NCBI GenBank assembly: GCA_963706445.1
Contig: OY970160.1
Span: 576,001-640,000 of the forward strand
Reading direction: 5' to 3'
DNA length: 64,000 bases
Source: an uncultured Nitrososphaerales archaeon
GTDB taxonomy: Archaea > Thermoproteota > Nitrososphaeria > Nitrososphaerales > Gagatemarchaeaceae
Position numbers and translations under genes: made by a program. This document shows, piece after piece, positions 22,305 to 53,071 of the stretch (its first letter is position 1; every line of letters begins with the position of its first letter). Below the pieces are notes generated by a model. The model saw only the letters and a program-made list of their open reading frames with translations. It ran no database searches and was not told the origin of the DNA.

Positions 22305-22955
22305 ATGTCTGCGTTCGCAGGTAAATGGGAAAAGCAAAACAGCCAGAGTTTCGGCACTCGGGTTAAGGATTCCGTAAAGAATCCCGGACCCCTGAAGCCG
22401 AGGCTCGACCTCGCCGTCCGACAAATCCAAGTCCAAGTCGCCAAACTCGACTCCACCACCAACAAACTAAGGGAGAGGGATAACTCGATCTTCGCAAAGG
22501 TCGTTACCTCTCTACAAAAGCACGACACACAGCACGCGTCTGTATTCGCCAACGAGCTTGCCGAGATCAGAAAGATGAACAAGATGGTCACGCAAGCGAA
22601 ACTGGCCCTAGAACAGATAGTGCTCAGACTCAACACGATCACGGAACTCGGTGACATCGTAGTCACCCTGACCCCGGCGATGGCAGTAATACGCAACGTC
22701 AAGGCCGGCTTGGTGGGCGTACTGCCTGAGGCGGAGAGCGAGATCGGTGAGATCTCTGGCTTGCTAAGTAGCATCCTGGTAGACGCCGGGACAGTCGGTG
22801 GATACTCGCTGAACTTCGAAGCGGCCAACGAGGACGCAGAGAAGATCCTTGCCGAGGCATCTGCAGTAGCAGAGACTCGTATGAAGGAGAAATTCCCCGA
22901 GATCCCCAGCACCCTGCCGTCCGCCGAATCTACATCCGAGGGTACCTCGTACTAA
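22305..22955 (+). CDS. cdvB: ESCRT-III/Snf7 protein (CdvB1/B2-like, no winged helix)
   Basis: ANELAEIRK...LALEQIVLRL.T..ELGD Snf7 core. Confidence 0.9.
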   Translation: MSAFAGKWEKQNSQSFGTRVKDSVKNPGPLKPRLDLAVRQIQVQVAKLDSTTNKLRERDNSIFAKVVTSLQKHDTQHASVFANELAEIRKMNKMVTQAKLALEQIVLRLNTITELGDIVVTLTPAMAVIRNVKAGLVGVLPEAESEIGEISGLLSSILVDAGTVGGYSLNFEAANEDAEKILAEASAVAETRMKEKFPEIPSTLPSAESTSEGTSY

Positions 22956-23015: not shown

Positions 23016-23663
23016 TCATGAAGGGAGCACCCGCGTTCTGATGGCGAGAGACCCGACTGAGCGGTAAATGCAAAGTATCCACGCAATTGCCGCAATGAAA
23101 GCCAAGGGAGATGGAAGGAAGATTAGCAGCAAGAAGCTGGCTATGCTCAGGACGACCCACTTTGTGTAGGTCTTGATTCTTCTGTCAGAGATGCGACGAT
23201 ACGTTACGGCAAGGACTACTATCGCATACAAGGTCACAGCTGCGAAGACGACAAAAGTGACAAAACTGGCGAAAGCCGCCTCAGCCGTGCTGAACCACCA
23301 CGGTGGAAGCGAAACTACCCCATACGCCGAAAAGAGAGCGGCGAAAGCTACGATTCCACCGCCCTTTTTCCAGGACAGGGTATCCCTGTGGAAGAAGTCT
23401 GCAGATAGTGCGACATTGATGTTGTTGGCGATCCATCCATAAAGCACGAGAAATGTGAAGCCCCAGATAACGCCCTCGACGACTACCGCGGTGACCGTTG
23501 ACGGGGTCTCGCCGAAGATGCTATCTAGATAGGTGGCCACAAAAAACGAACCTACGGACAATCCACCGATGGCCGTCCAGAGCGCCCGTGTCCGGGCTGG
23601 GTGGTCTACGAGAGCCCTCCTCAGGCTGAGAGCCCTGTATATGGTGTAGACGACGACACCCAA
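23016..23663 (-). CDS. 6-7 TM membrane protein, possible sensor
   Basis: Hydrophobic helices; follows the KaiC-like gene on the same strand. May start at CTG 23690. Confidence 0.65.
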   Translation of the reverse strand: MGVVVYTIYRALSLRRALVDHPARTRALWTAIGGLSVGSFFVATYLDSIFGETPSTVTAVVVEGVIWGFTFLVLYGWIANNINVALSADFFHRDTLSWKKGGGIVAFAALFSAYGVVSLPPWWFSTAEAAFASFVTFVVFAAVTLYAIVVLAVTYRRISDRRIKTYTKWVVLSIASFLLLIFLPSPLAFIAAIAWILCIYRSVGSLAIRTRVLPS

Positions 23664-23694
23664 GAGGACAACTTGGACGGCGTCTTGCAGCGCG

Positions 23695-24363
23695 TCACTT
23701 GGTGACGTTCGGCGTTACCTCCATCATCCCGTGGACGAACGAGAACCTGAACCACCCTTGCAAAGGGGGCTGACCTAACATTTGGCGCACTCGCATCACA
23801 GTCGTCACGGAGAGCCCTTCCTCGAACAGCTTCATCTCCAGAACCCCGTCGAAAAGGTGCACCATTGATGCGATGGTGGCTGGGGTGTGCATCTCCTCGT
23901 CTCCCAAGGCGAGTATCACGGCATCGTACCGCTTCACTTCTTCGACAAGCTGCGACCAGTAGCTGTACATCGATTCGGCTGGATTCAGTACGAGCAGCGG
24001 GGAAAGAATGTCCGTCACGACCCTGATCCGCCTTTCGGGGTTCCTCTGCAGGGCCTGCTTGATGTTATACGAGATCGAGGTGGTGTCCCGAAGGTCACAA
24101 TTCACAGCAGAACCAGAGCTCGCAATCCACTCTGGGACCCTGTCCGTGCTGATGCCGAAACCCTTCATGTCTCTGGTCACATCCGAGACTGGCCGGTGGG
24201 TGACGTAGAGGCAGTAGTCGCCTTGCGTGAGTCCGGACCTCATGAACCAGTACCCCAGCGCCTGCTTTCCGAGCCCCGACTGGCCTAGTACAAGTATGGA
24301 AGACCTATCGGGGTAACCATCGTTGATAATCTGGTCCAGGGTTGGGACCCCCGTCGATACCAA
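23695..24363 (-). CDS. RAD55/KaiC-family ATPase with degenerate Walker motifs
   Basis: STGVPTLD..I..GYP, GQSGLGKQ, VVTD and HLFDGVLEM. Confidence 0.85.
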   Translation of the reverse strand: MVSTGVPTLDQIINDGYPDRSSILVLGQSGLGKQALGYWFMRSGLTQGDYCLYVTHRPVSDVTRDMKGFGISTDRVPEWIASSGSAVNCDLRDTTSISYNIKQALQRNPERRIRVVTDILSPLLVLNPAESMYSYWSQLVEEVKRYDAVILALGDEEMHTPATIASMVHLFDGVLEMKLFEEGLSVTTVMRVRQMLGQPPLQGWFRFSFVHGMMEVTPNVTK

Positions 24364-24411
24364 ACGCTCCCGGTCAACTGCGATGCAAGATAAGCGTATT
24401 CGAGTCCGACT

Positions 24412-24996
24412 TTACAGGAGCGAGGACGCGGCGAGGACGACCATCAGGACAAGGAACACGATCGATAGGAGGAAGAACCACTGGGCCCCCCTCATCTCCC
24501 CGACCTTCCGATCCACTTTACGCGAGAGTGCATAGATCTCCTTTATCGATTCGGCATACCACCTCTCGGTAAGTTCGCCGACTCCGACATTCGCGAAGTA
24601 CCCTGTCCATTCCTCTTCTTTCATCGAAGCTATCTTGTCAGCGTATCCTGTGGGGCTAGGGGCCGCGTAGGAGCTCTTACCGCCCGGGCGTCTCCCCGGA
24701 ATGACGTGCACCCTCGGACCCATTGCCTGAAGCATGAAAGCAGTCGCTATGGCGACTGAAATCACGAAGCCAAGGAAGAGCAGGGACACCAGGTCGACGC
24801 CTCCCACCCGATAGTACAGCTTGTCTGCGAGGAAAGATGTGTAGAGGATCGTCGCCCCAACGGTGAGGAATGACATCGAACTGAATACACGTCCCACCTT
24901 GTCGTCAAGATTGTCTGTGGTGTGGATCACCCTCCCGAGCATCTCCTGCGCCATTGACAGGCGCTTCGAGAGTTCGTCCTCGTTCTTGGCATCCAA
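24412..24996 (-). CDS. PycTM/DUF5706-like (Pycsar effector family) membrane protein
   Basis: D.K before TM1, two TMs then PR, Y...IA loop, EIYALS....RK before the final TM. Recognised by eye. Confidence 0.65.
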   Translation of the reverse strand: MDAKNEDELSKRLSMAQEMLGRVIHTTDNLDDKVGRVFSSMSFLTVGATILYTSFLADKLYYRVGGVDLVSLLFLGFVISVAIATAFMLQAMGPRVHVIPGRRPGGKSSYAAPSPTGYADKIASMKEEEWTGYFANVGVGELTERWYAESIKEIYALSRKVDRKVGEMRGAQWFFLLSIVFLVLMVVLAASSLL

Positions 24997-25185
24997 CTAG
25001 GACAGACCCGTTCTGCGAAGTCGATTTAAGGCCTGTTGAGCTCCAGTTGCGGTTAGCGTTGAAGGCGGTCGAAGAGGAATATCAGGACCTGGCAAGGGGA
25101 TCTCGCGTCGATTCCCTCAAAATCTAGTTGGGACGCGCCGGCAATCGAGATACACTAATAATCTACGGAAGGCAGCCGTCGCAAC

Positions 25186-25932
25186 GTGACTAGCAGCTCG
25201 GAAGGGGAAACGAAGTTGAGCAGCGGCCTCCCCGGCCTCGACACCATGCTTGACGGGGGTTTCAACAAAGGGCGCGTAGTCCTCGTCCTCGGGGAGCCAG
25301 GGACTGGCAAGACGATAATCTGCTCACAATACCTCTACAACGGCGCTGCGGCACTGGGGGAGAACAGCATGTTCATCGGCATGAACGAGCCGAAGAGCCG
25401 TTTCATGCGTGAGATGCTCAACCTTGGGATGGACTTTGCAAAGCTCGAGGCAGATGGGAAGTTCAAGTACGTCGACGCCACAGAAGTCAGGAAGATCCCT
25501 CAGACTGCGCAGGTGGGCCGCATATCCGTCGGAGGGAGGGAGCTTGGTCTTGTCAACCTTCTTGAGACCATGCAGAGCGCGATAGCAAAGTTCGAGCCAG
25601 CAAGGATTGCGTTGGATTCGATGTCTGACCTTGTCTTCAGGTTCCCTTCCGTCGATGAGCGGAGGCCGGTGGTACTCGACATGATAGAGACCCTCCAATC
25701 GACGAGCGCCACCTCGCTGCTGACGAGCGAGCTCCTCTCGACCGGCGAGGAGAGGCTGCTCCAGCCCGAGGAGTACCTGGCCGAAGGAGTTTTGCTCATG
25801 AGGACCCTCCGCAAGGGAGTAAGGACCATCCAGATTCTCAAGATGCGGGGGTCGAAGGTCGATACCCATCCCAGACCGTACGTCATCACGGGGAAGGGGC
25901 TCGAAGTCCTGGCGACCGAGGAAGTGTACTAG
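25186..25932 (+). CDS. single-domain KaiC/RAD55 ATPase
   Basis: GEPGTGKT, IALDS, EEYLAEGV and ILKMRGS motifs. Confidence 0.92.
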   Translation: MTSSSEGETKLSSGLPGLDTMLDGGFNKGRVVLVLGEPGTGKTIICSQYLYNGAAALGENSMFIGMNEPKSRFMREMLNLGMDFAKLEADGKFKYVDATEVRKIPQTAQVGRISVGGRELGLVNLLETMQSAIAKFEPARIALDSMSDLVFRFPSVDERRPVVLDMIETLQSTSATSLLTSELLSTGEERLLQPEEYLAEGVLLMRTLRKGVRTIQILKMRGSKVDTHPRPYVITGKGLEVLATEEVY

Positions 25933-25953
25933 TCCCGGACGGATGCCCAAAGA

Positions 25954-27036
25954 TTGGACTTCTGTCTCATCCACCTGTCGGACTTCCACCTGCGGACCTC
26001 GACTCAACCTCAGACCGACAAGATCCTAAGCTCTCTCGCCGCCGACGCAAAGGAGAGGGTCGAGTCCCTCGACCTCCCCAGCCCTCACGTCGCTCTCTCG
26101 GGTGACCTAGCATACGGAGGAAGAGATGAGGAGTACGCCATCGTAGACGGCTTCGTGGCGACCCTCTCGGAGAGCCTTCACGCCAGAAGCCTCATGTTCT
26201 GTGGGGGGAACCACGATGTGAACTGGAGCACCCTCGCCCCTATCAGCACTGACCTCATGAACGAGATGGTGGAGAAAAGGGGGGGCGTCGCGTCGACCAA
26301 TGCTCACTTCGCCGTCGAATCCGACCGGGACGCAATGAAAGCAGGGATGGGCCCCTACTACTCCTTCTTGGAGAAGCATGGCGTGAAATCAGATCCGGAA
26401 CTGTTCTACGTCAGGTCGCTGACTGTGGCTAACCTCAGACTCAACCTCATCAGCCTGAACTCCGCGTATATGTTCAGCAGGAAGTACAACTACCACGGAT
26501 ACGTGGGCGCGCAACAGCTCGCTTCCGCCGAAAGAGCCGTATCAGGCCAGAGGGGGCCCTCATTCAACATCGCCTTGGTCCATCACCCCCTCGAGGCCAT
26601 CGTCCCTTCATCGCAGGAGGAGACAAAACGGCACCTGTTTTCCTTCTCAGATGTGATCCTGAACGGCCATGTCCACTCCCCCAGGGTCTCCATCGAGTAT
26701 ACTGCGAGGATGCTGGGGCGGGTGAGAGAAGGGCCGCCTCCGGTGATAAGCTGCGCCCGGTGTGTGTTCGACGAGGCGAACGACCCTACGGTGTCTTCGG
26801 GATACTCGATAATCGGGATCGACTTCGAGTACGAGAAGGTAGCCTCCCTCAAAGTGTGGGAGGTGGAATTTGACAAGCAAAAGAGGACGTGGTATTACGA
26901 CGAGAAGAAACAGACGTACCCCCTTGTCGTGAAAGTCTCCACCGGTTCGGGGGAGGAGCTCGACAGGGTAGGGCCGAAAGTAACTGATGCCGAGAGGGCC
27001 CTCCTCGGAAGGTGGAAGCACGAACAGGAATCATGA
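25954..27036 (+). CDS. calcineurin-like metallophosphoesterase (CpdA/Icc-like)
   Basis: HLSDFH, SGDL, GNHD, LNSA, HHP and GHVH motifs. Confidence 0.9.
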   Translation: MDFCLIHLSDFHLRTSTQPQTDKILSSLAADAKERVESLDLPSPHVALSGDLAYGGRDEEYAIVDGFVATLSESLHARSLMFCGGNHDVNWSTLAPISTDLMNEMVEKRGGVASTNAHFAVESDRDAMKAGMGPYYSFLEKHGVKSDPELFYVRSLTVANLRLNLISLNSAYMFSRKYNYHGYVGAQQLASAERAVSGQRGPSFNIALVHHPLEAIVPSSQEETKRHLFSFSDVILNGHVHSPRVSIEYTARMLGRVREGPPPVISCARCVFDEANDPTVSSGYSIIGIDFEYEKVASLKVWEVEFDKQKRTWYYDEKKQTYPLVVKVSTGSGEELDRVGPKVTDAERALLGRWKHEQES

Positions 27037-27195
27037 CAGGCACGCAGACTCCCGCGGAATGGAATAGGACTCACGTCTCGGTCCAAGCCGCCCGCGATTC
27101 TCAACGGGGGCATCCGGAAGAAAACTTTCACCACATTGTATCGCTTTTGTTGACTTAGCCCGTGATTATCGAGATGCCAATTTGAAGCACTGTAG

Positions 27196-28050
27196 TTGTC
27201 CTCACGCGTACCCCTGAGGTTCATCGGCCTAGGCGGAGGGGACGACATCAAACCGAAGATCGCTTCCACCATAAAGGAGATTGAGCTACACCGAAGGGAG
27301 CTCGAGAACCTCCGCGTCAAGCTCGAACAGAGACGGAAGTCATTGTTCGACACGACGGTCAAGGCCATGGTGGCCAAGGACCAGTCCAAGGCGACGATTT
27401 ACGCCAACGAATGGTCGGAGCTGAGGAAGGTGGGGAAGGTCGTTTATGCGAGCGAGCTCGCGCTCACCCAGGTGGTGCTGAGGCTGGAGAGCATCATCGA
27501 GGTCGGGGACGTGATGTCCCACATGAACAGTGCCTTCAAGGTCCTCCGCAAGGTGAACAAGTCCGTCCAGGGACTCGTCCCGTCCATAGACCAGGCGTCG
27601 GATGTGATCAACACCACTCTGTCCGAGACAATGGCTGAGATCGGACACGTGTCACCGTCGATATCTCTGAACATCGAGACCGAGAGCGGGGCCGAGCTTG
27701 TGGAGCAGGCGAGGAAGCTCGCCGAGGAGCGGGCCGAGGAGATGAAGCGCTCCCTCATCATCCCCCCACTCGAAATCCCGCGCGAAGCATTCGAGCCGAG
27801 GGTACCACTGCTCGCTACAGGGGATGACGATGAAGAGGCGGCCTTCCTGGGCACCATCTACAGGCCGAAGCCTACGGAAGAGGCAGAAGAACAGGTCCTG
27901 CAGTACGCCGCCATACACAATGGCAACGTGGACATATCTGACGCTTCTACCGTGCTCAAGATGCCTTCGGACGTCGTCGAGGGGGCGATGCTTGCCCTGA
28001 TGTCCCAGGGGAAGGTCAAGCTCAGCGAAATGGAGGCAAACAAGAAATGA
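27196..28050 (+). CDS. cdvB: ESCRT-III CdvB with C-terminal winged helix
   Basis: Snf7 core YANEWSELRK...LTQVVLRLE..EVGD plus a C-terminal wH. ATGA overlap with cdvC. Confidence 0.9.
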   Translation: MSSRVPLRFIGLGGGDDIKPKIASTIKEIELHRRELENLRVKLEQRRKSLFDTTVKAMVAKDQSKATIYANEWSELRKVGKVVYASELALTQVVLRLESIIEVGDVMSHMNSAFKVLRKVNKSVQGLVPSIDQASDVINTTLSETMAEIGHVSPSISLNIETESGAELVEQARKLAEERAEEMKRSLIIPPLEIPREAFEPRVPLLATGDDDEEAAFLGTIYRPKPTEEAEEQVLQYAAIHNGNVDISDASTVLKMPSDVVEGAMLALMSQGKVKLSEMEANKK

Positions 28051-29291
28051 GTGTCGTAGCCGCGAAGGAACTCGAAGACGACGCCAAGAAATACGCCTCC
28101 GAGGCGATCCGCCTCGACTCCCAGGGGGCCCACGGAATGGCTATCCAGATGTACCAGAAGGCGATCTCCACCCTTGTCAAACTTGTGCACCTCTACCCCG
28201 ACTACCGCCTGAACAAGCAGTACACAGAGCGGGCCATGGCTTACCAGGAGAGGGTCAGGGCCATACAAGTCGCCCACGGACTCCTCCCCCAGGACCGGAC
28301 TTCAGAGATGGGCGAATGGACCCCACCGACCACCGGTGGGAGGGGTTCCTCAAATGGGAACGGGGGGTCAGCGAACCAAAACTCCGCCAACGGGCCGCAG
28401 GTTGTACAACAGCTCAAGGCTTCTTTCAATGAGCTAGTCATCACCGAGAAGCCAGACGTGAAGTGGGACGACGTCATAGGCCTCGAAGACTGCAAGATGG
28501 CCATCCGCGAGTCGATCGTGTTCCCGTTCCTCAGGCCCGACCTCTTCAAGCTCGGGTGGCCAAGGGGGATTCTCCTCTACGGTCCGCCTGGGTGCGGGAA
28601 GACAATGGTTGCGGCCGCCACTGCCGCTGAGATCGACGGCTACTTCATCTCGGTCGACGCCGCTTCGATTATGAGCAAATGGCTGGGCGAGGGAGAGAAG
28701 AACGTCTCCAAGCTCTTCAGCAACGCCAGGAAGATGCTCAGCGATAACAAGCCGGTAATAGTGTTCGTCGACGAGATAGACTCCCTCCTCGGGACCCGCG
28801 GTCAGGAGGTGGGCGGAGAGGTCAGGGTGAGAGACCAGTTCCTCAAAGAGACCGACGGAATAAACGACAAGGGGAAAAACCTGCACTTGTATGTGATAGG
28901 GGCTACAAACAAGCCGTGGTCACTCGATCCCCCGTTTCTTAGACGCTTTAGTAAGAGGATTCTAGTTCCGATGCCTGATACTGATGCTCGCATGGCCCAG
29001 TTCAAGTTGTACACCGCTCCCCTGACACTCTCCGAAGATGTCGGTCTGGAGACATTGGCGAAGCTGAGTGACGGGTATTCGGGAAGTGACATCAAAGACA
29101 TATGCCAGGGGGTTCAGTTGCGGGTCGTCAGAGAATTGTTCAAGTCAGGCAAAGCGCTCGACAAGGAGACAACCACGAGACCTATCGCTGTAGCTGACTT
29201 TAAGGAGATCATGAGAACTAGGAAGCCTTCGGTCTCGCCCGACATGCTTAGGGCGTACGCCCAATGGTCGAATAGTTTCAGCGCACTCTAA
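28047..29291 (+). CDS. cdvC: Vps4-like AAA ATPase CdvC (MIT + AAA)
   Basis: N-terminal MIT domain, GPPGCGKT, FVDEID, GATNKPW and RRF.KRI motifs. Confidence 0.96.
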   Translation: MSVVAAKELEDDAKKYASEAIRLDSQGAHGMAIQMYQKAISTLVKLVHLYPDYRLNKQYTERAMAYQERVRAIQVAHGLLPQDRTSEMGEWTPPTTGGRGSSNGNGGSANQNSANGPQVVQQLKASFNELVITEKPDVKWDDVIGLEDCKMAIRESIVFPFLRPDLFKLGWPRGILLYGPPGCGKTMVAAATAAEIDGYFISVDAASIMSKWLGEGEKNVSKLFSNARKMLSDNKPVIVFVDEIDSLLGTRGQEVGGEVRVRDQFLKETDGINDKGKNLHLYVIGATNKPWSLDPPFLRRFSKRILVPMPDTDARMAQFKLYTAPLTLSEDVGLETLAKLSDGYSGSDIKDICQGVQLRVVRELFKSGKALDKETTTRPIAVADFKEIMRTRKPSVSPDMLRAYAQWSNSFSAL

Positions 29292-51495: not shown

Positions 51496-52452
51496 TCAAA
51501 CCCTGCTGGCGAGCTCTTCGAGCATCTCGTCCGCTCTTGAGGTCGGGACTCTGCACCCTGCAGCCCTCTGGTGGCCCCCGCCGCTCCCTCCGAGCTTGGC
51601 GGCGATACTTGCAATCGCCCTCCCCAGGTGGACTCTGCAATCAGAGGTCGACCGTAGGCTGACCTCGTAGTACCCCTTCTGCTTCTCCTTCAAGGCTACC
51701 CCTACGCGGACGTCGAAGGCCCCCAGGAGGAGCTTCGAAACGATACTGGTGGAGTACCCCGACATGAACATGAAGGCCAGGTGTCCCTTCTTCTTCCCAC
51801 CGGCCCTCACTTCCTTCTCCAGGGACTCCTCCTTCCCAAGCTGCCTGACTGCCGCCTCTGCGATTCCCTCTATCTCGTGAGGCCGTTTCAATCTCGACAG
51901 CTCTTGGACGATCATCTCCGGGAAGCCGTCTTCCTCAGACCTGTCGCCCAGAGCGAGCGAAAGCATTGTCGCTTCAAGAAGCACGGAGTGCCTTTCCGTC
52001 TTTTCCATCATCTTCTTTGCCAGTGGGGAGTTGTCCATGTAATCCGTGACCGCGCCGTAGAGGGCGTTCAGCATGGCTGCCTCGGGGAGGACGTCCTTGA
52101 AGGTCTTGTACGTCAGTATGCTTGCACATTCACTCGTTTCGTGGACGACCTCTATGCCGAGCTTCCTGAGCTTTCTCTTGGCCGGCTCAGACATGTAATG
52201 GTGGTCGATGTACGTTACTCTAGCGTTCTTCGACAGCCTCTCCATCTCCTTCAGGAAGTCGGGGAAGTCAGCGGTGTCCGCCCCCAGGTCGCTGAGGACT
52301 ACCCTCTCGGCATCACTGGGGATGCTCCTCAGGTTGTCGACGAGATTGTCATAATCGGATAGGATGATCTTCCCCCCGGTCGCGGCTACCGAAAGGGAAC
52401 CTGACCCTAGGCCGTCAATGTCTTTTCTGTGCGAAAGGCAGTAAGCCCTCAT
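51496..52452 (-). CDS. DHH/DHHA1 phosphoesterase
   Basis: H..DIDG, SD, IDHH, SLRS and GGGH..AAG motifs. Confidence 0.9.
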   Translation of the reverse strand: MRAYCLSHRKDIDGLGSGSLSVAATGGKIILSDYDNLVDNLRSIPSDAERVVLSDLGADTADFPDFLKEMERLSKNARVTYIDHHYMSEPAKRKLRKLGIEVVHETSECASILTYKTFKDVLPEAAMLNALYGAVTDYMDNSPLAKKMMEKTERHSVLLEATMLSLALGDRSEEDGFPEMIVQELSRLKRPHEIEGIAEAAVRQLGKEESLEKEVRAGGKKKGHLAFMFMSGYSTSIVSKLLLGAFDVRVGVALKEKQKGYYEVSLRSTSDCRVHLGRAIASIAAKLGGSGGGHQRAAGCRVPTSRADEMLEELASRV

Positions 52453-52569
52453 TGGGCCATTGTTCCGAATCCTGCCCATTTAACGGATTTTGAGAGTGGC
52501 CAGGACTCCGACCGGTCATCTGCCCACGATGGATTTATCGTTAGGCAGATTGCACCTACTGGAAGCGCA

Positions 52570-53071
52570 TTGTCTAGAGAGGAGAGAAGGTTGGCCGCGA
52601 TCATGTTCACCGACATGGTCGGGTACACCGCTCTCACCCAGACTGACGAGTCAAGGGCAATGCAGGTCCTTGAGAGACAGAATGGGATTGTGAGACCGAT
52701 CATCTTGAAGCATCAAGGCAATGAAGTGAAGTCGATTGGGGACTCTTTCCTCGTCGAGTTTGAAAGTGCCCTTGAAGCGCTTCGCTGCGCCGCGGAGATA
52801 CAGAGTCGCCTCCACGACTACAACGTATCAGCGGGCAATGAATGGAAGATTCGAATTAGAATAGGCATCCACCTCGGAGATGTGATCCACCGGGACAAAG
52901 ACGTCTTTGGCGACGCAGTGAACATCTCTTCTAGGATTGAGCCCTTTGCAGGCCCAGAGGGTGTGTGTATCTCGAGGCAGGTGTTCGATCAAGTCTGACC
53001 CGATGCTTGCAAAGCTTAGGGAAGACCCTCGCTTCTCCGAGTTTTGCAGGAAGGTTGGGCTTCCCACGTAG
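52570..53071 (+). pseudogene. class III adenylate cyclase-TPR gene collapsed by internal deletion
   Basis: AIMFTDMVGYT, KSIGD and GDAVNISSRI, with a stop at 52998. Out-of-frame tail SDPMLAKLREDPRFSEFCRKVGLPT*. Confidence 0.8.

Follow-up and report, generated by a model that had tools for sequence, protein, structure and literature searches.

A 64,000-nucleotide (nt) stretch of the genome of an uncultured Nitrososphaerales archaeon (contig OY970160.1, positions 576,001 to 640,000 of the forward strand; hereafter called the window) contains a module of three genes, which code for an intact KaiC-like ATPase, a metallophosphoesterase (MPE) and a small membrane protein of the PycTM type. The KaiC and MPE genes form a pair that is usually accompanied by a PycTM-family protein, and comparison with related genomes firmly shows that the ensemble behaves as an accessory, relocatable module. 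Two adjoining genes, for a KaiC-like protein with a deviant P-loop and a protein with about six transmembrane segments (6TM), form a separate unit. We tentatively propose, with somewhat less than even confidence, that a phosphodiesterase controlled by a nucleoside triphosphatase (NTPase) would act on a nucleotide signal that gates a PycTM-like pore, with cyclases supplied in trans in this genome and in cis in some relatives. The source genome is a single contig of 1.82 Mb, and its near relatives are Nitrososphaerales metagenome-assembled genomes (MAGs) from peat and soil.

Neighbourhoods were collected by scanning metagenome contigs with a PycTM profile, which gave 56 loci, mostly from peat. 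KaiC and MPE are adjacent and co-directional, with gaps of 21 to 30 nt, in every genome or contig that has either gene, a distant form of MPE in genome G067 aside. Besides the window, 19 of the loci fetched have the KaiC, MPE and PycTM-like genes on one contig, and in the window and 12 of those 19 the genes are direct neighbours. In the majority of informative contigs, the PycTM-like gene either adjoins KaiC-MPE or is no more than ~5 kb from it. Its orientation varies: it is divergent to KaiC-MPE in the window and in five contigs (L007, L119, L128, L130 and L166) and convergent with it in four (L008, L009, L161 and L162). Downstream of the PycTM-like gene, the neighbour is nearly always one of four kinds: a deviant KaiC/6TM pair in the same direction, a pair of a different paralogue class in convergent orientation, MPE-KaiC, likewise convergent, or, in seven contigs, a class III cyclase-TPR gene.

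The distribution of the module is patchy. MPE is present in 7 of the 55 genomes of the genus; the copy in G067, 561 aa long, is distant and has no KaiC with it. Five genomes have the PycTM-like gene, and all of them have MPE too; two genomes, both incomplete MAGs, have KaiC-MPE and no PycTM-like gene. The IleRS proteins of the carriers are 62 to 71% identical to that of the window, yet their KaiC proteins are 84 to 89% identical, and the closest relatives of the window by IleRS (75 to 76% identity) lack the module. The flanking genes differ among carriers.

A first-pass annotation had described five genes of this region as one signalling or defence system. All five open reading frames (ORFs) are present as described, motifs included, and they are no chance pattern, since every protein has many conserved homologues. 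At least 10 related contigs from peat and soil (L111-L118, L127 and L149) show the same order of the five genes, with or without an insert of 3 to 5 kb. The notion of a single five-gene module nevertheless did not hold. In three genomes (G016, G003 and G036), the trio stands together and no deviant KaiC or 6TM gene accompanies it. Compared with the window, identities in these genomes are 84 to 89% for KaiC, 72 to 81% for MPE and 33 to 37% for the PycTM-like protein; the surrounding genes code for thermopsin, an ABC transporter or DUF72/MFS proteins, and the PycTM-like gene is divergent or convergent. Conversely, the deviant KaiC/6TM pair occurs without the trio in contig G017:C81, and its paralogues sit beside unrelated genes at other loci.

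Contig G017:C81 also reveals an empty site. Its syntenic order is CdvB paralogue (95% identity), 6TM, deviant KaiC (88%) and Snf7 (74%); a gap of 177 bp separates deviant KaiC from Snf7. Local alignments between the window and this contig stop at position 24397 and restart at 27128, which delimits a variable segment of 2.73 kb that holds exactly the KaiC, MPE and PycTM-like genes (Table 1). A search for terminal direct or inverted repeats at its borders found none, and therefore no mobility mechanism can be named for it. In this lineage, the interval between the cdvB paralogue and the cdvB-cdvC genes is a hot spot of variation: it amounts to 74 bp of unmatched spacer in G017:C81, whereas in L116 and L149 accessory genes fill more than 7 kb.

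Table 1. Features of the module, its surroundings and related loci. Positions are those of the window unless a genome contig (C1) is named.
Feature	Position	Strand	Description
CdvB/ESCRT-III paralogue, left flank	22305-22955	plus	94-97% identical in syntenic contigs
6TM membrane protein	23016-23663	minus	215 aa; 5-7 hydrophobic segments; no Pfam family
Deviant-P-loop KaiC-like protein	23695-24363	minus	222 aa; PF06745, E 8e-18; GQSGLGKQ
Conserved 12-nt stretch, putative promoter of deviant KaiC	24386-24397		CAAGATAAGCGT
Variable segment with exactly KaiC, MPE and PycTM-like genes	24398-27127		2.73 kb; absent from contig G017:C81
PycTM-like membrane protein	24412-24996	minus	194 aa; PF18967, pJV1-spdB3 3TM; divergent from KaiC-MPE
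Divergent spacer, PycTM-like gene/KaiC	24997-25185	unstranded	189 nt
TATA-like box of PycTM-like gene, putative promoter	near 25027-25032	minus	TTAAAT
TATA-like box of KaiC, putative promoter	near 25152-25160		ACTAATAAT
Intact single-domain KaiC-like ATPase	25186-25932	plus	248 aa; PF06745, E 3.8e-50; GEPGTGKT
Metallophosphoesterase (MPE)	25954-27036	plus	360 aa; Pfam Metallophos, E 8e-7
Snf7/CdvB and Vps4/CdvC genes, right flank	27196-29291	plus	Snf7, E 1.9e-6; AAA, MIT and Vps4_C domains
Truncated class III cyclase	52429-52998	plus	189-aa ORF
Class III cyclase-TPR genes	G000:C1 74-76k, 407-409k, 757-759k, 777-779k, 794-796k, 1333-1335k, 1499-1501k		seven full genes
Ferritin-like/USP/c2 cluster	C1:1004935-1007307		400 kb from the module; without KaiC-MPE

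All ligands of a dinuclear metal site are present in MPE (D10/H12, D51, N86-H87, H210/211 and GHVH at 238-241), and its motifs are of the phosphodiesterase type, in support of the earlier reading of it as a phosphoesterase. The protein has both the motif set (D-x-H, GD, GNH[E/D], H, GHxH) and the fold of class III phosphodiesterases of cyclic nucleoside monophosphates (cNMP). Among sequence families, it matches the NCBIfam model DS8_antiphage (NF053861) with E 2e-27 over model positions 1 to 277, a match to the N-terminal metallophosphatase of DS-8 and at the level of the domain only (95 bits against a full-length cut-off of 790 bits). It also matches the NCBIfam model DS9_1, which represents DS-9A (E 9e-17), the PADLOC candidate PDC-S60 (E 1.7e-21), and a CBASS effector model labelled endonuclease (E 3.7e-10). 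A predicted structure of MPE (pLDDT 81) has as its best Foldseek match 9a6c_B, Bacillus subtilis YydB in an integrative model of YydD-YydB (E 3.7e-17, query TM-score 0.70 over 347 alignment columns, 17% sequence identity). The next matches of the model are Rv0805, GpdQ, SMPDL3A/B and acid sphingomyelinase, with E values from 7e-12 (Rv0805) to 3e-10 for Rv0805 and GpdQ. Sequence similarity to the latter two is marginal (E 2.5e-4 to 2.5e-3) and confined to the first 88 residues. The label 'CpdA-like' is a weak one; the kinship of MPE with CpdA is distant, and DS-8, DS-9 and YydB are better matches.

Compared with the class III phosphodiesterases, MPE contains an additional helical insert and a C-terminal part rich in beta structure, and neither a Pfam scan nor the structure model revealed an NTPase domain within its 360 residues. 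Bacterial relatives of the MPE domain (~25% identity) are parts of large proteins, fused to NACHT and HEAT, to WD40 and a Roc GTPase, to EAD10 and a protein kinase, or to TIR; these architectures are those of NTP-dependent conflict systems. Judged by its sequence relatives, MPE belongs to an effector clade. Archaeal relatives outside the genus, from Bathyarchaeota and Thermoplasmata, are 34 to 37% identical, longer, and without a KaiC neighbour, so that the KaiC-MPE pairing is, as far as seen, lineage-specific. Three archaeal relatives at 34 to 37% identity (L018:901-2586, minus strand; L026:7983-9623; L027:7992-9575) comprise 527 to 561 aa, have no KaiC neighbour and carry an additional C-terminal domain of ~200 aa without a Pfam match.

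The partner of MPE is an intact KaiC. A profile of the protein matches KaiC chains in the PDB with E 8e-60, and the full RecA-like KaiC set is present: Walker A GEPGTGKT, catalytic E68 and Walker B D144. These residues are invariant among 18 orthologues, whose mean column identity is 91%. The contrast drawn earlier between one intact KaiC (GEPGTGKT) and one deviant KaiC (GQSGLGKQ) is real. The architecture of a KaiABC clock is absent: both KaiC proteins are single-domain (222 and 248 aa), and Pfam scans turned up no KaiB-like neighbour.

The assignment of the third protein to the PycTM family was examined by profile searches and holds at the level of the clade, the window protein itself being sub-threshold in Pfam. 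It matches three PADLOC PycTM models, the best with E 2.3e-7 over its full length. PF18967 is matched by 60 of 64 clade relatives (best E 6e-8). The clade comprises 127 proteins in a set of 5.8 billion, at least 120 of them listed, and all but one truncated protein among the 120 listed members carry a precomputed PF18967 match. Because nearly all relatives match in this way, the window protein may be considered a remote member of PF18967. A profile of the clade collected 562 cluster representatives, 280 of them at E <= 1e-10, which share a D-x-K-x-G-R motif and further invariant residues. The predicted structure is all-helical, with three long helices bearing hydrophobic segments, and is compatible with the three-transmembrane (3TM) pJV1-spdB3 family, whose members assemble into hexameric pores. 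Among PDB sequences, a profile search yielded no solved relative, and a PF18967 search in five bacterial genomes gave no match. Two subgroups of the PycTM-like protein, ~35% identical to each other, both adjoin KaiC-MPE pairs that are 84 to 90% identical. In a few distant PycTM-family proteins, the chain also contains a HAD-type hydrolase (P0184, with 497 aa, and a relative 37% identical to it); together with DS-9, which combines an MPE with a HAD protein, these fusions link PycTM, HAD and MPE in a triangle of associations.

The locus had been called cyclase-less, which is true of the locus and not of the genome. No cyclase lies within ~25 kb of the module, and the only one in the window is truncated. 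The genome as a whole has seven full class III cyclase-TPR genes coding for proteins of ~640 aa (Table 1). Such genes occur in 47 of the 55 genomes of the genus, in 1 to 19 copies each, a repertoire unusually large for archaeal cNMP signalling. In relatives, cyclase-TPR genes lie directly beside the PycTM-like gene, and in genome G003 (contig L008) a cyclase heads a cluster that ends in KaiC-MPE. We considered a single dedicated cyclase clade serving PycTM and rejected it: a tree places the adjoining cyclases in at least five paralogue groups. Of a class III cyclase domain, the truncated ORF in the window keeps only the N-terminal ~140 residues, a TGA cutting it off where full-length paralogues go on. 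Its orthologue in L136, a complete cyclase-TPR gene, is located 5 kb from the PycTM-like gene, and the ORF is likely a remnant.

The second KaiC-like protein had been described as degenerate. Its P-loop does deviate; the protein is not decaying, since all 42 family copies examined have GxxGxGK[E/Q], with no T or S at the last position. The protein also lacks a catalytic Glu after the P-loop, and it represents a conserved deviant-P-loop subfamily. The 6TM gene is always directly downstream of it, in relatives and paralogues alike. In the ESM Atlas, the 6TM protein matches archaeal hypothetical membrane proteins and gives a weak HisKA_7TM lead. This genome has three such pairs (23016-24363 in the window; C1:807386-808967, L175; and 734130-735534, L176), and pairs number 2 to 4 per genome in 8 of the 55 genomes. 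They are probably signalling pairs of a membrane sensor and a pseudo-ATPase. The 12-nt stretch CAAGATAAGCGT, 22 to 34 nt upstream of the deviant KaiC gene, is conserved with G017 and may be this gene's own promoter, of the leaderless type.

Within the locus, the gap of 21 nt between KaiC and MPE (positions 25932 and 25954) and the divergent spacer, put at about 190 nt and measured at 189, agree with the initial description; the gaps in the minus-strand unit, from the PycTM-like gene through deviant KaiC to 6TM, are 48 and 31 nt. TATA-like boxes read from the sequence lie ~30 nt upstream of both starts in the spacer and are putative promoters. RNA-library contigs that are 100% identical to the window cover parts of the PycTM-like gene and of MPE and span the KaiC/MPE junction (25853-26004). 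They come from three peat metatranscriptome runs of a single study and are only a hint of expression, because DNA carry-over remains possible; none covered the deviant KaiC and 6TM genes, which is uninformative. The left flank carries, beyond the CdvB paralogue, IleRS and a YfcE-type phosphodiesterase gene; the paralogue is 32% identical to the Snf7 protein of the right flank. A link to cell division, which the position between cdvB genes might suggest, was rejected because the trio sits at other sites in three genomes. In genome G013 (L014/L021:2969-3634, minus strand), a DUF998 multi-transmembrane gene is convergent on KaiC-MPE in place of the PycTM-like gene; its product may be an alternative membrane partner or unrelated.

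In the reading that we favour, the KaiC-like protein would be a hexameric ATPase that serves as an NTP-dependent sensor or switch and controls MPE, encoded 21 nt downstream and presumably co-transcribed. We infer a physical interaction between the two, which would make them a split, KaiC-based counterpart of the DS-8 fusion and of the YydD-YydB pair. The substrate of MPE would be a nucleotide signal, in the likeliest case a cyclic mononucleotide that one of the class III cyclase-TPR proteins of the genome produces, and the PycTM-family 3TM protein would be a membrane pore that responds to the same signal. In the wiring that we prefer, the phosphodiesterase would hold the ligand low at rest and the pore would be closed; a trigger sensed by KaiC would stop or redirect the enzyme, the pore would open and the cell would arrest, either as abortive infection or as a stress response. 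The deviant KaiC and 6TM proteins would constitute a separate membrane-sensor unit, often encoded beside the pore gene, that may feed into the pore. The occurrence pattern, in which no genome has the PycTM-like gene without MPE and some have MPE without the PycTM-like gene, fits a pore that needs its phosphodiesterase. This asymmetry mildly favours a safeguard role for the enzyme, the genomes being few and incomplete.

A more specific version, which we regard as unlikely, is that KaiC was recruited to control an immune-type phosphodiesterase and that this enzyme is the antidote to a suicide pore gated by cyclic nucleotides, in a lineage rich in cyclases. The module would then resemble a toxin with its antidote and provide a KaiC-timed form of abortive infection in soil Nitrososphaerales. 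If true, no KaiC-based system would precede it among the DS-8-like metallophosphatase defence systems, and archaea would have their first Pycsar-like effector that is coupled to a degrading enzyme and not to a dedicated cyclase.

Several observations weigh against the favoured reading. Phosphatase activity is needed for defence in DS-8, which by analogy would fit an effector better than a safeguard, and the substrate of even DS-8 is not established (PMC13092281). The window PycTM-like protein scores below the Pfam cut-off for PF18967 (E 2.7e-4, 21.7 bits against 27.2), and a Foldseek search of its model against the PDB gave nothing meaningful, the searched set apparently being without the published PucTM structure. 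In three contigs (L118, L135 and L156), the PycTM-like gene has no KaiC-MPE within 3 to 6 kb. The comparison contigs come mostly from related peat and soil populations, so that many adjacencies are inherited and not independent, and cyclases are so numerous that some chance adjacency to the PycTM-like gene is to be expected. The column identity of 91% in KaiC is unusually high for an immune sensor. Pfam and PADLOC scans of the neighbourhoods found no known defence genes near the trio; the neighbours are housekeeping genes (IleRS and cdv), with no defence island. Finally, KaiC-MPE stands at the distal end of a Rieske/USP/ferritin-like operon in many relatives, which looks like stress physiology.

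This last arrangement leads to the alternative that survives best, possible in our view and less probable than the proposal above, namely physiological cNMP or stress signalling. The cyclase-TPR proteins would make cNMP, MPE, as the matching class III-type phosphodiesterase under KaiC regulation, would degrade it, USP would bind nucleotide, and the PycTM-like protein would be a ligand-gated channel for stress adaptation. The relatives' operon is co-directional (c2, c2, Rieske, USP, ferritin-like, KaiC, MPE) with gaps of 0 to 80 nt, and it is the cluster headed by a cyclase in L008. In the fullest form of this fluid region, it is divergent from PycTM, deviant KaiC and 6TM, which converge on the CdvB paralogue, YfcE and IleRS. 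The cluster at L141:2406-5149 (minus strand), found likewise in L025, L116, L149 and L153, comprises two c2 genes, coding for a small Cys-rich protein of no family, and genes for a Rieske ferredoxin, USP and a PF12902 ferritin-like protein. Also in favour of a physiological role are the core and expanded status of the cyclase-TPR genes in the genus, the very strong purifying selection on KaiC, the lack of known defence genes nearby, and the closeness of the MPE fold to Rv0805 and GpdQ. However, a housekeeping role is hard to square with a module that occurs in only 7 of 55 genomes, at differing locations and with an empty site in a related contig. The nearest sequence families of MPE are validated or candidate defence proteins, and PycTM-family proteins are so far known solely as suicide effectors. 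In this genome, moreover, KaiC-MPE is missing from the ferritin-like/USP/c2 cluster, which is 400 kb distant.

A second alternative, which we consider unlikely, is that two or three independent systems have gathered in one variable hot spot: a self-sufficient DS-8-like KaiC-MPE, a Pycsar-like combination of PycTM with a cyclase-TPR encoded in cis or in trans, and an unrelated deviant pair. KaiC-MPE without a PycTM-like gene in two genomes, the seven contigs in which the PycTM-like gene is directly followed by a cyclase, the insertions of 3 to 5 kb between PycTM and KaiC-MPE in several contigs, and the size range of the inter-cdvB locus all accord with it. It accounts less well for an adjacency that is kept in two deeply diverged subgroups of PycTM, in either orientation and at several chromosomal sites, or for the fact that none of the 55 genomes has the PycTM-like gene without MPE; the adjoining cyclases, moreover, form no dedicated clade.

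The five-gene, cyclase-less circuit first suggested, in which a pair of KaiC proteins and the phosphodiesterase would gate the membrane effector, is improbable. The recurrent gene order and the short gaps of the minus-strand unit speak for it, as does the finding that the PycTM-like gene lies beside deviant pairs of four different paralogue classes and arrangements, though there are only three pairs per genome. These points are outweighed by the trio without the pair in three genomes, by the pair without the trio at the same locus and at unrelated ones, by the conserved upstream stretch that the deviant KaiC gene keeps as its own, and by the cyclases of the genome. Least probable of all is that MPE is a protein phosphatase resetting an autophosphorylated KaiC in a phospho-cycle without a nucleotide messenger: KaiC-family proteins autophosphorylate, the KaiC domain is very close to the CI domain of cyanobacterial KaiC (E ~1e-50) and the two genes are tightly coupled, but MPE has the phosphodiesterase-type motifs GNHD and GHxH and no PPP signature, its structural neighbours are phosphodiesterases, and in its relatives the domain is an effector joined to NTPases that are unrelated.

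Metallophosphatases have only recently been validated as anti-phage effectors, and the separable KaiC and MPE proteins, of 248 and 360 aa, would make it tractable to identify the substrate and to study how an NTPase switches the enzyme. Archaeal KaiC-like ATPases, whose roles are largely conjectural, would gain a concrete partner and output. The module would also extend Pycsar-family pores to the Nitrososphaerales, in which antiviral and cNMP signalling are barely known. If instead its role is physiological, a Pycsar-type pore can serve ordinary cNMP physiology.

In the literature, we found no report that pairs a KaiC-like ATPase with metallophosphatases of this family or with a PycTM-family protein, in a search that did not cover the main 2017 survey of KaiC proteins; searches on KaiC with phosphoesterase and defence, and on YydB/YydD, gave nothing usable. 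As to the earlier statement that no system of such composition was known, the theme has a precedent in the NTPase-centred conflict systems of Kaur et al. 2020 (PMC7159879). There, a calcineurin-superfamily nucleotide phosphodiesterase is the commonest effector, sometimes together with a predicted nucleotide-responsive pore of the two-transmembrane SLATT type (PMC7159879). The three-part logic of regulatory NTPase, calcineurin-type phosphodiesterase and predicted pore is shared, as an analogy of architecture and not a homology of the NTPase or the membrane protein. Those systems use GTPase, STAND or MoxR-vWA NTPases with SLATT, whereas the module has a KaiC-like ATPase with a PF18967 3TM protein. 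They also use EAD adaptors, which a Pfam scan did not find in the module and which occur only in the bacterial relatives of MPE, and the lineage here is a unicellular archaeon.

DS-8 and DS-9 of Escherichia coli, identified with DefensePredictor, share a homologous metallophosphatase domain with the module. DS-8 is a metallophosphatase-NACHT fusion in which both activities are needed for phage defence, DS-9 combines a metallophosphatase with a HAD phosphatase, and the metallophosphatase catalytic residues are required in both (PMC13092281). The enzyme of DS-8 is, like MPE, coupled to a P-loop NTPase, in a single protein with NACHT, whereas here the NTPase is a separate gene of the KaiC/RecA class. 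The module has no HAD gene such as that of DS-9, and both systems differ from it in lacking a membrane protein and in their bacterial hosts.

With Pycsar and Pucsar, the module shares a PF18967 protein, member or borderline, of ~190 aa with three helices or transmembrane segments and a helical cytosolic part. Those systems have an adjacent dedicated PycC or PucC cyclase, whereas the window has none; the cyclases adjoining PycTM-like genes in relatives are 640-aa cyclase-TPR proteins of several groups, and the partners here are KaiC and MPE. YydB, the best structural match of MPE, is modelled bound to YydD, which has no match to the KaiC profile; the sequence identity of YydB and MPE is as low as noted above. 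CpdA/Icc, Rv0805 and GpdQ have the same metal-binding motif set and fold as MPE, and are set apart from it by their marginal sequence similarity and by its helical insert and beta-rich C-terminal part. Archaeal KaiC-like ATPases were reportedly described by Makarova, Galperin and Koonin in 2017 as a 'signal transduction hub'. The locus resembles such a hub in having single-domain KaiC-like ATPases beside variable partner genes, and the deviant KaiC with its 6TM protein fits the theme of a sensor combined with a KaiC.

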